Shown here: positions 21,091 to 62,247 of the stretch, one piece after another
How the letters are laid out: every line of letters begins with the position of its first letter
Position numbering within the stretch: position 1 is the stretch's first letter
From: Eledone cirrhosa
Taxonomy: Eukaryota
Length of the DNA stretch: 64,000 bases
Direction: 5' to 3'
Assembly (NCBI GenBank): GCA_964016885.1
Contig: OZ024745.1
Span: 55,118,001-55,182,000, forward strand
Notes under the pieces: generated by a model
The model's database searches: none
Seen by the model: the letters and a program-made list of their open reading frames with translations, nothing else
What the model was told of the DNA's origin: nothing
Program-made: the position numbers and the translations under genes

Positions 21091-21292
21091 ATATATATAT
21101 AGAAGAAGTTAGTATGCCCGTGGGTACTAAGTACCCCCGGAAGTACATAGGTTGTCTATGATTTAAGGTTGTTCTATGGTATCAATTTGACATACCAGAA
21201 CTATAATATTAATATAAGCAGAACAAGCAAAATTCAACCAATTTTTTAAAATAAATTAAAAAATATAATTTAAATATTTACCTATTCTTTTC

Positions 21293-21374
21293 GCCCTTAC
21301 CGATCGGTTTCGCCTTGTAAAACACTAGAAATCCAATGGATTTCTAATGGAAAATCAAGGCTCATCAGAGAAGC
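21293..21374 (-). ncRNA. Type I hammerhead ribozyme, long helix II insertion
   Basis: Minus: GCTTCT-CTGATGA-GCCTTG...CAAGGC-GAAA-CCGATCGG-TA-AGGGC; palindromic helix III; GUA site. Confidence 0.85.
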
Positions 21375-21774
21375 ATTTTCCTTTCCTAGGGCTAAAGACC
21401 CAGGAACGATAAAATATATTGTTATCTGCCAGCTAGCACAGATCCAAAAGGCCGAAAAATGACCTGTACGCGAACTACCCGAGGTGAAAGCGGGAAAAAC
21501 ATAGACGTGTTGTCTATCTCGTTACTAAAAATAGCAGCTAAATAGAAACAACAGATTTGTTCTCAACATAACGGAGTGTAATAGAAGAAGTTAGTATGCC
21601 CGTGGGTACTAAGTACCCCCGGAAATACATAGGTTGTCTATCATTTAAGGTTGTTCTATGGTATCAATTTGACATACCAGAACTATAATATTAATATAAG
21701 CAGAACAAGCAAAATTCAACCAATATTTTAAAATAAATTAAAAAATATAATTTAAATATTTACCTATTCTTTTC

Positions 21775-21856
21775 GCCCTTACCGATCGGTTTCGCCTTGT
21801 AAAACACTAGAAATCCAATGGATTTCTAATGGAAAATCAAGGCTCATCAGAGAAGC
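21775..21856 (-). ncRNA. Type I hammerhead ribozyme (second repeat unit)
   Basis: Same sequence as 21293-21374, shifted by 482 bp. Confidence 0.85.
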
Positions 21857-22139
21857 ATTTTCCTTTCCTAGGGCTAAAGACCCAGGAACGATAAAATATA
21901 TTGTTATCTGCCAGCTAGCACAGATCCAAAAGGCCGAAAAATAACCTGTACGTGAACTACCCGAGGTGAAAGTGGGAAAAACATAGACGTGTTGTCTATC
22001 TCGTTACTAAAAATAGCAGCGAAATAGAAACAACAGATTTGTTCTGAACATAACGGAGATAATAGAAGTTAGTATGCCCGTGGGTACTAAGTACCCCCGG
22101 AAATACATAGGTTGTCTATGATTTAAGGTTGTTCCATGG

Positions 22140-22224
22140 TATATATATATATATATATATATATATATATATATATATATATATATATATATATATATAT
22201 ATATATATATATATATATATATAT
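22140..22224. repeat. (TA)n microsatellite (another at ~22435-22542)
   Basis: Direct reading. Confidence 0.97.
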
Positions 22225-22435
22225 GATGTGAGAAAAACCACAGACCCTCCATCTCAACTCTACTTTTGAAAAGCAGAAGAACTGCGAAACCGGTAAAGGA
22301 ACCAAATAAATATATATATATTTTTTAAAAAATAGGACTCCAGTTGCATTTTCGATTTCATCTTTCTTTCTTTATACTTTCACTCGTGTAGGACACTCGG
22401 TATTTTTCATTTTGTAAAAAAAACCTCACTTTCTA
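22225..22435 (+). mobile_element. Solo PLE-type terminal repeat between (TA)n tracts; family shared with 43888-44228
   Basis: GAGAAAAACCACA.ACCCTCCATCTCAA.TCTACTTTTGAAAAGCA... recurs in both orientations at 44 kb; carries HHR followed by AATAAA. Confidence 0.75.
22263..22298 (+). ncRNA. Minimal hammerhead ribozyme, U3-A8 core variant
   Basis: CTT-TTGAAAA-GCAG AAGAA CTGC-GAAA-CCGG-TA-AAG; palindromic ACCGGT helix III; short helix I. Confidence 0.7.
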
Positions 22436-22757
22436 ATATATATATATATATATATATATATATATATATATATATATATATATATATATATATATATATA
22501 TATATATATATATATATATATATATATATATATATATATATAAACATCGTTTAAATTTGGTGGTTTACCACTGGATAGAAATGGTCATTCTGCAATGTTA
22601 ACCTTGACGTAAAATGAGTAAAGCACTCGACGTCATGCAACTTATCCATCTTCAATGTTGAATCATGTGGATGGTGTGGGAATCGGGTAAATGTATTATA
22701 AACTGAAATGACAGGAGGCCAAATATGGTGAATATTCTTAATTTTTTATTACTGTAA

Positions 22758-22814
22758 ACACTATGCACATTTCAGTCACCAGGTTGTGTAAGACCCGTTG
22801 ACCTCATCAGGTGT
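22758..22814 (-). ncRNA. Type I hammerhead ribozyme
   Basis: Minus: ACAC-CTGATGA-GGTCA...TGACT-GAAA-TGTGCA-TA-GTGT; near-palindromic helix III; AUA site. Confidence 0.75.
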
Positions 22815-58700: not shown

Positions 58701-59414
58701 AGGATAAGGAGGAGAAGGAAGCGGAACAAGTGAATGAAGTGGAACAGAAGACGGATGAGGTGCTTAATCAGAATTCTGGTGGTGTCGTTAATGATGATGA
58801 ATGTTACGTAAACAATAATATTTTTAATATTAGTAATACTATTTTTAAAAATCATTGACTAAATTCTCATCTGTATCTTCTTAATTCTACTTTATATATT
58901 TGCTCAAATACACACACACACACACCCACACCCACACACAGACAGACACACACACATACACAGACACACATACACATATGTATTTATGTAAACAAAGAAA
59001 GAGAGAGAGGGGAGAGAGACAGAGACAGGGTGGGGTAGTAATATATATAGAATACCTAGAAAAGAGGAGGCTCAATATGTTCACACGTAAATATGTCTGT
59101 AAAAAGAAAATGTATGGATAGGAGTCTGATCTACAATAGTGTCAGCTTGAATATATCATAGTTAATCCCATTTAACTGAAATAGCTGATTATACCAGGAA
59201 ATAAAAAATTTAAAATTTAGACACATGGCCGGTAATTTCGAGCAGTGATACATCGATTAAATCAACCTCTTTACTTGACAGCCACTTTATTTTATCGACC
59301 CCCAGAAGGCTGAAAGGCTAATATATACTTCGTAAAGAATGTAAATACATACGGTAAATATATTTCATCCTATGCTCTACCAATTCTCCTAATTCATCAC
59401 ATTTATTGGTGGAA

Positions 59415-59575
59415 ATAATTGTTTCTACTTTTGGCACAAGGCCAGCAATTACCCAGTACATTACTGGTACTTTATTTTATCGACCCCATAAGGATGAAAG
59501 GCAAAGTTAACCTCAGCAATGGCAAGGGCCGCAACTTTATGCTGGAAAGCATGGTGTCCGATACTGCCAATCCAA
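59415..59575 (-). mobile_element. SINE family A (older copy adjacent at ~59215-59400)
   Basis: GGCACAAGGCCAGCAA...TACTGGTACTTTATTTTATCGACCCCATAAGGATGAAAGGCAAAG. Confidence 0.88.
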
Positions 59576-60363
59576 TAATAAACGCTGCTTCACACAACAG
59601 AGATAAGTATGTTTAAGAAAGTGGTATGCTGGATACCAGAGGGATCATATGCTCTATCCCTTATTCTCAATGTTTACAAATCCGCCACCTATGCGGTTGA
59701 AACCATTATTTTGAGGCTGACCCAGGTTCGTGACATGCTTTGACTGTTCACTGGACAAGGTTACCTCCACCACCACCACCCTGTTTCAAGCCACCTTCCC
59801 TCGTTCCTGTGAAATCGATCGCATGACTGAATTCACTTCGGTGTGCACACGTGTGCCCATGTATGTATATGTATGTAAATGTGGGTGTTTTCGTACGAAT
59901 ATATGTAGGTGTGCCTATAGAATCCACCCACATCTGCATATACACGTACAAAAAAAAAACATTTCAGACATAGACGTGCTTATTCATATTGACACACACA
60001 CACACACAGACGCATACATACACACACACACAAACTTACGCGTACACTCATGCAGACAAAAAAAAAAGACAAAATAGTTTTCAGTCGCAAACGTGTATAC
60101 AGTGGCAGAGTGGGTCTAAAGATACTGGTTGCCAGGAGATGAAAGGGGACCACTTACATATAAAATGCTATCATTTAATTTTTGTAATGAATAAATAACA
60201 TTTTCCAAATAATCATAAGTGGAAACAAGACAGTGCAATCAAATTTTTGCGAAAAAATATCTTATCTTCTCCAATAAAAAAAATATTATGTATTTTGCGA
60301 AATTCAGAGACTTTCAATCATGACCTGTGGTCTTTCACTCTCACTCAATATATATATATATCA

Positions 60364-60902
60364 TCTATATATATAAAAGCGAGGAAGTGTGTGTGTCTGT
60401 GTACAACTTTGGACAGCTAAGGCTTTTACAATTCCCAACCGAATTGGACCAAATTTTCTGTGCACGTTGCAACTCTCCCTAAGACTTTTTCAAATCGACC
60501 CACGTTCAGCAATAACAAATCGATAGCAAAATTATATTTTCTAAAGTGCATGATGTAAGGTAAAAATCAATCAAAACAAAATCCTTATGGGACTTTCCAT
60601 TTAAACCGTCTGCTTTCATTACACCTTTTTGTACTTTAGCAAAACTGTCTGTTTTTTTTTACAGATTTGCAACGTATATTGTCTTTAATCATTTGTATAA
60701 CTACATCCTGTTCAGTGTTTTCCTTCATTATCAGCATAGTTTTACGTGTACAAAGATTGTACGAAATATTCGTTTGCATTAATTATTGAAGACTTCTGCT
60801 TATTTTGACAGGTTGGGGACAAATAATTTTCTTCTTTTGCTCCCTAGCTGTATATTCTTAGCATAATTTCAAACCCCGGGCAACGCCGGGTATATATGCT
60901 AG
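60364..60902 (+). mobile_element. Non-autonomous Helitron
   Basis: A|TCTATATATATAAAAG start; CCCGGGCAACGCCGGG hairpin then TATATATGCTAG|T end; same terminal motif type as 3406-4903. Confidence 0.9.
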
Positions 60903-61438
60903 TATATATATATATATATATATATATATATATATGGGACTGCGTGTATATGTGTGCATGTACATGTGTATATATAGATTTATATATGTATAGATAACAT
61001 GTTCTCAACTCGTACAAAAATCCGTAGGGATCTAATTGACATTGTATAAATATATATTATGTATATATATATATATATATATATATATATATAAATATGT
61101 ATGTATGTGTACTGTTTATTCACAGTAAAGTGATCAGTGAAAAAAAACTTGGTACATCTACATATGTATACGTGTGTGTATTCATATACATACTAGTATT
61201 TCAGTATACATATATGGATGTACATCTTTGACTTAATTGTTTGAGCGTCAGTCATACAAAAGTGAGTTACAAACGAAACGAAATTTAATTTCGTTTCGTT
61301 ATTTGTTTTTATCGTCTCCGTTGAACCGGTACTTACTCACACTCTATGCAGGTTGGTCTGCCCACTACTAATTTTCATAGAAAAAGCATATAGCGATATG
61401 TGCTTTTACGATTCTCTAGAGAGGCCGGAAGATAGGTA

Positions 61439-61483
61439 AATATTGCTGATGAGTTGTAACAACAACGAAACTAGTTCAATATT
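61439..61483 (+). ncRNA. Minimal type I hammerhead ribozyme
   Basis: AATATTG-CTGATGA-GTTGT AACA ACAAC-GAAA-CTAG-TT-CAATATT; 7-bp helix I, palindromic ACTAGT helix III, GUU site. Confidence 0.88.
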
Positions 61484-61909
61484 CCTTGTCTGGCTTTCTG
61501 GAGAATAGAGGAAAGGTGTTTCCTCAAAAACCAGTATGACTCTAAAAACCGGTTTGTCTGTGTGTTTACATACAGAATAGCTGGCCACTCACAGTAAAGT
61601 GATCAGTGAAAAAAAAAACTTGGTACATCTACATATGTATACGTGTGTGTATTCATATACATACTAGTATTTCAGTATACATATATGGATGTACATCTTT
61701 GACTTAATTGTTTGAGCGTCAGTCATACAAAAGTGAGTTACAAACGAAACGAAATTTAATTTCGTTTCGTTATTTGTTTTTATCGTCTCCGTTGAACCGG
61801 TACTTACTCACACTCTATGCAGGTTGGTCTGCCCACTACTAATTTTCATAGAAAAAGCATATAGCGATATGTGCTTTTACGATTCTCTAGAGAGGCCGGA
61901 AGATAGGTA

Positions 61910-61954
61910 AATATTGCTGATGAGTTGTAACAACAACGAAACTAGTTCAATATT
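61910..61954 (+). ncRNA. Minimal type I hammerhead ribozyme (second unit)
   Basis: Identical to 61439-61483, shifted by 471 bp. Confidence 0.88.
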
Positions 61955-62247
61955 CCTTGTCTGGCTTTCTGGAGAATAGAGGAAAGGTGTTTCCTCAAAA
62001 ACCAGTATGACTCTAAAAACCGGTTTGTCTGTGTGTTTACATACAGAATAGCTGGCCACTCACAGTAAAGTGATCAGTGAAAAAAACTTGGTACATCTAC
62101 ATATGTATACGTGTGTGTATTCATATACATACTAGTATTTCAGTATACATATATGGATGTACATCTTTGACTTAATTGTTTGAGCGTCAGTCATACAAAA
62201 GTGAGTTACAAACGAAACGAAATTTAATTTCGTTTCGTTATTTGTTT

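Follow-up and report, generated by a model that had tools for sequence, protein, structure and literature searches.

The 64,000-nucleotide (nt) window analyzed here, positions 55,118,001 to 55,182,000 of contig OZ024745.1 (GenBank assembly GCA_964016885.1) of Eledone cirrhosa, carries insertions marked by hammerhead ribozyme (HHR) motifs. The inserted elements are of known kinds, namely the ends of Penelope-like elements (PLEs) and the small tandem elements called retrozymes. The informative part is the architecture of the insertions, a quantified variant absent from an earlier note on the letters of this DNA: families have two fixed 3' ends, and insertions built of two head-to-head arms almost always combine one long with one short end. 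We consider it probable that both ends of a cut target prime on one RNA, uncut or circularised, in a paired form of target-primed reverse transcription.

Paired long and short ends

Repeats of the window were mapped by masked self-BLAST, and end positions were numbered from the HHR cut. Two fixed 3' ends per family were found, 60-140 nt apart:

Family A: short end +96, long end +199
Family B: short end +81/82, long end +141
Family C: short end about +73, long end about +214
Family D: short end +139, long end about +165-190
Family F: short end +293, long end +394
Family G: short end +20, long end +98/100
Family H: short end +33-41, long end about +96-103
Family I: short end +233-237, long end +305-310 (+307)

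Many insertions consist of two arms joined 5' to 5' (head-to-head). The final tally of such pairs covered 324 loci of seven families (D and E left out) with 152 candidate inverted pairs, comprising 113 long/short, 3 long/long, 1 short/short, 14 long/other, 2 short/other and 11 other/other pairs, the last being low-complexity matches to the untranslated region (UTR) of family B, together with 8 that were left open. Long/short combinations make up 113 of the 117 classifiable insertions, against at most half if ends were independent (p = 5e-29). In 39 evenly spaced 10-kb tiles of the genome (389.8 kb in total), a sample that is neutral for ends, 12 insertions were long/short, none had the same end twice and two were unclassifiable. 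All five two-armed insertions of the window are long/short, and the rule also holds where kilobase arms extend into an open reading frame (ORF), as in 12 of 12 family G insertions and at loci L234 and L238 of family B. Family D, scored by eye, yielded four long/short insertions and one or two that may be long/long.

Insertions target (TA)n or AT-rich sites, and their flanks are mostly (TA)n. At the five readable family I sites, target duplications of 11-13 bp were found, above the threshold of more than 4 bp that applies to retrozymes; none were found for families A, D and F, and in pure (TA)n they are unreadable. The junctions between arms overlap by 0-7 nt in most family I arrays, with templated inserts in two arrays and a 32-nt hairpin overlap in one. 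Comparison of the tails between families revealed no common fold or motif except pyrimidine-rich runs ending in TA-like bases.

The arms of one insertion share a haplotype. At sites polymorphic among other insertions, scored in 34 insertions, arms were concordant at 248 sites and discordant at 7, against about 107 discordant sites expected if they were independent. Concordant/discordant counts were 100/2 for family G, 53/4 for F and 95/1 for A (expected discordant 44, 24 and 39, respectively), and none of the scored insertions had arms of different haplotype. All 7 marked two-armed arrays of family I have the array's marker in each monomer of either arm, and in four of them it is private. Family G arms differ by 0.40% within an insertion and by 0.77% between insertions. 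Private differences between arms persist with age, which argues against later gene conversion. Furthermore, 14 of 57 long/short insertions of families G and B are non-nested: the arm with the short end reaches further 5', yet lacks the tail. Neither arm of such an insertion can be a copy of the other, and these cases contradict the self-priming model put forward in PMC3846280.

Proposed paired priming on one RNA and its alternatives

In the mechanism that we favor, a PLE protein complex would cut both strands of a (TA)n target, and each 3' end would prime on the same RNA. A staggered double-strand cut with two 3' overhangs is suggested by the duplications at (TA)n or AT-rich sites. The two fixed ends would represent two reverse transcriptase (RT) start sites downstream of the ribozyme, one per arm, served by two RT active sites, for which a dimer is assumed. 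The 3' ends of the two cDNAs would then anneal, as the short junction overlaps suggest, and each would be copied as the second strand of the other. The template would be uncut or re-ligated, and retrozymes of families A, D, F and I would use the PLE proteins in trans.

The state of the template is indicated by the 5' ends of arms. Only 10 of 304 lie at -5 to +8 of the cut; arms thus cross the cut site without pile-up, from which we infer that the template was uncut or re-ligated. Among family G arm starts, 57 of 128 fall at -46 to -34; the upstream edge of this cluster coincides with the A (-45) of a hexamer resembling an initiator, and a TATA-like box is located at -70. Among family B arm starts, 30 of 72 fall at -75 to -64, the single position -73 accounting for 13; it is a CA step that follows a TATA box by 30 nt. 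We take these to be TATA- and initiator-like elements by their presumed fit to promoter consensus. The short copies of B and G would represent run-off at the 5' end of linear transcripts, that of B holding a whole, uncut HHR and that of G beginning inside it. A linear uncut transcript primed at its 5' site copy would, by such run-off, give rise to abundant short palindromes, and long copies would require priming at the 3' copy or on a circle; the basis for this step is that many B and G arms stop at an initiator-like site 25-30 nt past a TATA-like box. The candidate start of family G lies within loop II of its own HHR, so that primary transcripts would start without the 5' half of the ribozyme, leaving cleavage to the downstream copy. 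In the family B end repeat (L229, L212), the 300 nt upstream of the cut contain, ahead of the candidate start, what we take to be a TATA box, CCAAT boxes and an E2F-like site, an arrangement that resembles a cell-cycle or histone-type promoter.

The retrozymes display no promoter-like pile-up of 5' ends, and their array-wide private markers are consistent with a monomer circle. For these families a ribozyme-cut, ligated circle lapped by the RTs is slightly favored as the template, an uncut multimer being nearly as plausible. More-than-unit primary insertions do occur, since L306, of the PLE family G, contains 1.5 units that each bear private changes on a common haplotype.

Several points weigh against paired priming on one molecule. 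Four insertions carry the same end twice (L026, L023, L278, L307), to which the possible long/long cases of family D (L255, L169) may be added. One-armed insertions are frequent (6 of 11 in the window, 8 of 20 family G insertions in the tiles), a count in which a second arm shorter than about 26 nt would escape detection. The data that were tallied also served to define which ends count as long and short, and the queries for families B, C, D and H included the long end, so that those loci are not end-neutral. Diagnostic sites are linked, and site counts therefore overstate independence; a common haplotype cannot separate one molecule from two transcripts of one locus. An in vitro study of an anole PLE saw no difference in start site between strands (PMC11167929), and an autonomous partner for families A, D, F and I was not found among the loci described below. 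Periodic minor variants in L060 and L069 are impossible from a single monomer circle. Nor does array length always reflect laps of the RT: in L304/L305 (G000:C2:320548000-320562000), a 3.5-unit array of the 3,544-nt family G PLE, units 2-4 are identical and share a premature stop, with variants that are absent from unit 1 and from the other arm. Later duplication or assembly error would explain these identical units, and over L060/L069 and L304/L305 together the patterns indicate one of these two or else multimeric templates. In L067 the minor variants of the two arms were not phase-locked.

Other routes to the same architecture were weighed. The arms might be primed separately, the short end being produced by later endonuclease trimming or by microhomology capture at an AT-rich spot; Craig et al. 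propose "EN-mediated resolution" as the origin of the PLE tail (PMC8557442), short ends fall at TA-like sequence in several families, and those of family I scatter from +233 to +237, with long ends at +305-310. We nonetheless regard trimming as unlikely, given that the RT starts of the anole PLE in vitro coincide with both tail boundaries (PMC11167929), that single-armed copies with a short end exist (family F in the window; L314, L319, L320), and that trimming exactly one arm would still require coordination. Two RNA-protein particles from one source locus, one per target end, would equally be expected to leave a common haplotype if one locus dominates expression in the cell, and the independent variation of arm lengths suits such particles as well. 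This explanation appears somewhat less likely again: a steric rule forcing different starts must be added to it to reach 113 of 117, and several G and I haplotypes are amplifying at once, yet no scored insertion mixes them.

A fold-back origin, like that put forward for Penelope elements of rotifers, would have the second arm arise by self-primed copying of the first strand or of an antisense template, and haplotype sharing would then be automatic. Self-priming is the explanation given for head-to-head palindromes in PMC3846280, and numerous short copies of G and B form almost perfect palindromes whose arms start within a few bases of each other. As a general account it is nevertheless highly improbable, because some of the non-nested insertions are so by 0.2-1.7 kb (L308, L309, L311, L312, L317 and the window insertion at 52460-53899), either arm can be the longer, and the matched starts of short copies fall at a promoter-like site; fold-back could account for some short palindromes. 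Chance matching or misassembly (fold-back reads) is scarcely credible as the source of the motifs or of the palindromes. The sequence is AT-rich and repeat-rich, and the L304/L305 array has suspiciously identical units; against this stand the ten HHRs compared with 0.19 in shuffled sequence, compensatory changes between subfamilies, asymmetric arms bounded by target duplications, and old pairs diverged by 10-14%.

Paired priming thus stands as the preferred reading. We suggest more tentatively, as a possible though somewhat doubtful extension of it, that one PLE ribonucleoprotein with two RTs docks at two fixed sites of one RNA, each RT primed by one end of a staggered cut, that circles lapped by both RTs give multi-kb head-to-head arrays in one event, and that run-off at the promoter of capped linear transcripts leaves short palindromes numbering on the order of 100,000 in each abundant family.

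Ribozymes and elements of the window

HHRs were sought with a descriptor combining a core of CUGANGA, UUGANAA or GUGANCA with GAAA, NUH and helices I-III. The window contains 10 matches, against 0.19 +/- 0.45 per shuffle (maximum 2) in 200 local dinucleotide shuffles that preserved microsatellites; an earlier version, whose helix III rule excluded 22758, gave 9 matches against 0.195. The HHR observation is confirmed: the earlier note had listed 12 cores, which are present at their positions and of which 10 show the type I core (C3-G8 or U3-A8, GAAA, NUH, helices I-III), far above the composition-matched shuffles that it had named as a check. The remaining two are non-canonical. At 24129, A faces A at the helix II base, as it does in most of 28 distinct copies of family D, and the window copy has an additional change that disrupts a base pair; at 43222, helix I is only 2 bp long in 7 of 7 distinct family E copies seen. 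Both were kept as non-canonical HHRs, and both features resemble atypical PLE motifs of PMC4209133. U3-A8 variants have previously been described in Schistosoma PLEs.

The insertions of the window are as follows, "passing" denoting HHRs that match the descriptor; two-armed insertions have no single strand.

21100..22139, minus strand: family A retrozyme, 482-nt tandem unit x2.15, in (TA)n; passing HHRs 21294-21372 and 21776-21854, cuts after 21298 and 21780; single arm with the long end (+199; short end +96)
22224..22436, plus strand: family B solo end repeat (pLTR) of an autonomous PLE; passing U3-A8 HHR 22263-22299; begins at the candidate transcription start (about -72) and finishes at the long end (+141; short end +81/82)
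22543..22935, minus strand: family C insertion, not tandem; passing HHR 22758-22814, cut after 22762; long end about +214 (short end about +73)
23395..24316, two-armed: family D insertion, about 440-nt unit; non-canonical HHR 24129-24193; left arm (-) with the long end, right arm (+) with the short end (+139)
39700..43345, plus strand: PLE-A (family E end), frameshifted RT and GIY-YIG with a long 3' UTR; minimal HHR 43222-43256, cut after 43253, 3' end about +92 in (TA)n
43887..44226, two-armed: family B palindrome, both HHRs decayed (44010, 44125), arms 90% identical; left arm (-) with the long end, right arm (+) with the short end
44281..47500, minus strand: PLE-B, decayed element with RT and GIY-YIG
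50781..51603, minus strand: family F retrozyme, about 645-656-nt unit x1.26; passing HHR 51061-51142, cut after 51067; single arm with the short end (+293; long end +394)
51757..51959, two-armed: short family G insertion with only the 3' half of an HHR; left arm with the short end (+20), right arm with the long end (+98/100)
52460..53899, two-armed: family G insertion, 3' part of a very young autonomous PLE; passing U3-A8 HHRs 52553-52646 (-) and 53792-53885 (+); left arm with the long end, right arm with the short end and extending about 530 nt further 5' (non-nested)
56440..56732, two-armed: family H palindrome; left arm (-) with a decayed HHR (56545) and the long end (about +96-103), right arm (+) with passing HHR 56635-56709 and the short end (+33-41)
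61120..62247, plus strand: family I retrozyme, 471-nt unit x2.4, very young; passing HHRs 61439-61483 and 61910-61954, cuts after 61476 and 61947; single arm with the long end (+307; short end +233-237)

The decayed motifs that had been noticed near 44010, 44125, 51775 and 56545 are real partner arms of two-armed insertions, and together with the 12 cores they resolve into 11 insertions of nine families (A-I), as the count of about nine had anticipated. At the end of PLE-B, which lies outside this count, a degenerate hammerhead-like motif at about 44455-44492 (-) was observed that the earlier list lacks. Helix I, helix II and the GAAA..UA part are present, the 5' core is non-canonical, and relatives occur in L225 and L307; it is possibly a dead or atypical ribozyme retained as a structural element. 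Relatives in L098, L118 and L307 also appear two-armed.

Helix covariation, a further check named beforehand, was found between subfamilies of A and I, with few independent events per family: helix II C-G changes to U-A in 6 of 22 distinct family A copies, helix III has a compensatory change in L127, and helix II U-A changes to A-U in one family I copy. Across 1.76 Mb of overlapping, biased loci, HHR matches form 30 sequence clusters, 12 with at least two members, in which the core is kept and the helices differ; pairing is demanded by the descriptor itself. The palindromic helix III ascribed to most of the motifs is common (8 of the 12 multi-member clusters) and not universal. In Rfam searches only the pair at 61.4/61.9 kb scored, as HH9 with 37.7 bits, under the 52-bit gathering score; matches to microRNA families were palindromes or microsatellites, all under the gathering score, and were rejected. 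An excess of mutation at the cut junction (-2 to +3), seen in 5 of 40 G copies and 0 of 68 family I contexts, was weak and partly CpG, and was not used.

On the evidence of their sequence, families B (22263, 44010, 44125), E (43222) and G (51775, 52553, 53792) are the end repeats of autonomous PLEs, in which an ORF combines RT with a C-terminal GIY-YIG domain. HHR-bearing pLTRs flank the ORF in partial tandems at L229 (B), L227 and L228 (E), and L304 and L306 (G). In L229, two pLTRs with U3-A8 HHRs 4,979 nt apart enclose a long frame with predicted RVT_1 (E 2e-6) and GIY-YIG (E 2e-6) domains. Family E relatives of PLE-A have open frames of 822-828 amino acids in a 4,712-nt unit, the 822-residue frame matching RVT_1 (E 2e-4) and bearing a YVGQT-type motif; an RT query returned 32,047 first-look candidates in the genome. 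The very young family G PLE has a unit of 3,544 nt, in which a 717-residue ORF (L304:2861-5011, minus strand) starts about 190 nt past the cut and contains YRDD and YIGLT motifs. Two pieces of this ORF had no Pfam match, PF01541 was present on one homologue among the 120 matches listed, and no solved structure matched it by sequence. Inverted 5'-truncated copies, a one-sided tail and microsatellite targets were found for B and G; copies of family E were seen solely with the long end, in (TA)n, and no two-armed insertion of E was among those scored. The B and E proteins have the CX2-5CxxC linker described for the Neptune clade of PLEs. Family G appears Nematis- or Hydra-like, judging by its motifs. 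Its ends occur in 15 of the 39 tiles in about 20 insertions, which corresponds to the order of 100,000 in the genome. A genome search with the G end returned no matches, probably because its words are too common, and G loci were recruited with the UTR stretch neighboring that end.

The units of retrozyme families A, D, F and I measure 482, about 440, 645-656 and 471 nt, with a G+C fraction of 0.35-0.36 in A, F and I, and no meaningful ORF of 120 amino acids was found in them. They are tandem, non-coding and of low G+C content with a type I HHR per unit, as is typical of non-LTR retrozymes, the HHR of D being non-canonical. Genome searches gave 2,180 first-look candidates for family A and 4,773 candidates for F. 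Family I arrays reach 15 units per arm, the longest coming from a best-score search and incidental copies being short. No contiguous PLE ORF was found beside A, D, F and I in 30, 19, 19 and 20 loci, respectively, or beside C or H in 19 loci each, and the four retrozymes had no match to the pLTRs of 65 PLE loci, a small share of more than 10,000 GIY-YIG candidates. Because the insertion architecture is common to PLEs and retrozymes, the latter would appear to depend on PLE proteins.

The proposed link of the ribozymes to PLEs and non-LTR retrozymes is thus upheld, with three families being PLE ends, four tandem retrozymes and two (C and H) unassigned. The idea that the elements are non-autonomous applies to the non-coding families A, D, F and I and not to B, E and G, whose long or intact ORFs with RT and GIY-YIG elsewhere in the genome rule it out for the set as a whole. 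A further two-armed tandem HHR family was observed in L243 (positions 273-1700), with a unit of about 311 nt and 2 + 3 ribozymes in opposite directions. Contigs of four sequencing runs under four organism labels contain family I or a close relative, including a close relative under three other organism labels (X2, X5, X6) with very high contig depth in X2; these contigs speak for presence only, not for expression, strand or circles.

Genomic abundance, known systems and neighboring features

The tiles of the 3.0-Gb assembly contain 21 HHR matches, against 1.6 over 30 shuffles, or 3.4 per 64 kb and about 50 per Mb, which extrapolates to roughly 150,000 motifs (88,000-234,000) in the genome. HHR density is high genome-wide, and an exceptional HHR locus is ruled out: the window has about three times the genome mean in motifs, the 7 insertions that hold its 10 matches comparing with 3.3 expected (Poisson p about 0.05, in a window chosen for its HHR richness), and is a fair sample of an HHR-rich genome. 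More than 6,000 HHR motifs in 16 families are given for a coral and 126,247 for the axolotl (PMC7229834), and 235 Rfam hammerhead loci are listed for the giant squid (PMC6962438). The present census, with at least 30 clusters, is high, yet an ordinary extension of known families.

PLE hammerheads, retrozymes and their proposed PLE origin, inverted copies and the one-sided tail have already been published, and circles were proposed as PLE templates in 2014 (PMC4209133). In endonuclease-positive (EN+) PLEs with pLTR hammerheads (PMC4209133, PMC8557442, PMC3846280), published tails are one-sided and 30-40 nt long and are explained by self-priming on an antisense template or by endonuclease resolution. 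Here the tails are 60-140 nt, pairing is near-strict (113/117), arms of a common haplotype are often non-nested, and short copies stop at a promoter-like site. Metazoan non-LTR retrozymes (PMC7229834; 10.64898/2026.07.22.740005) share with families A, D, F and I the non-coding, low-G+C tandem units with a type I HHR each, the dispersed arrangement as dimers to multimers and coexistence with PLEs, the units here being 440-656 nt. Fixed 3' ends, two-armed divergent arrays and the paired tail are not described for them in the sections examined. Homology to pLTRs is present in 24 of 57 Xenopus retrozyme families (10.64898/2026.07.22.740005), whereas for A, D, F and I the comparison with 65 PLE loci revealed none. 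For some of the published families, expression, circles and cleavage have been demonstrated. Paired ends give, for these retrozymes, a footprint of PLE-type integration without pLTR sequence homology.

The anole Poseidon PLE was studied in vitro by Frangieh et al. (2024, PMC11167929): cutting and extension affected both strands of an AT-rich target, the tail was bounded by two internal RT starts, the main template was uncut RNA, and a dimer was predicted. That work did not link the two strands of one event, whereas in the genomic data here the sites are used one per end.

In LINE-1 twin priming, reportedly described by Ostertag and Kazazian in 2001, both target ends are said to prime on one RNA, with microhomology joining the cDNAs into a head-to-head insert. 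The second priming site is there said to be variable and the copied parts non-overlapping, whereas here both sites are fixed and the arms overlap or repeat.

The pairing rule, the common-template and non-nesting tests, promoter run-off and two-armed retrozyme arrays were not found in the literature searched, which excluded most subscription papers, including early Drosophila Penelope work; Figs S1-S2 of PMC11167929, on start sites, may bear on the novelty of the pairing rule. How PLE tandem and inverted structures form, and how the second strand is made, are stated as open questions (PMC8557442 section 15; PMC11167929), and retrozyme integration is likewise unresolved. Near-strict pairing, a common template and non-nesting bring scattered oddities under one testable mechanism, and from the findings come exact start sites and the length of the stagger, along with candidate starts of transcription and, in family G, a very young element whose ORF is intact. 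If true, a rule of two RTs per RNA would explain the PLE tail, inverted pLTRs, second-strand synthesis and retrozyme arrays, and tail pairing would be a sequence-independent marker of PLE-driven mobility.

Elsewhere in the window no tRNA genes were found. A GIY-YIG fragment at 20590-20900 (+) has 69% DNA identity to PLE-A, with no HHR found adjoining. The open frames at 12947-13339 (-) and 33957-34376 (-) resemble decayed long interspersed element or transposase fragments and have no Pfam match. Self-BLAST revealed about eight copies, 71-92% alike, of an abundant repeat resembling a short interspersed element (1177-1385, 5253-5443, 9833-9979, 16135-16291, 25649-25715, 38038-38218, 49566-49761 and 59215-59575). 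Small isolated palindromes in which no HHR was recognised lie at 50167-50228 and 56860-56922, and stray tail fragments akin to families H and C, beside (TA)n at 43365-43440 and 50036-50120, are probably very short or decayed insertions.

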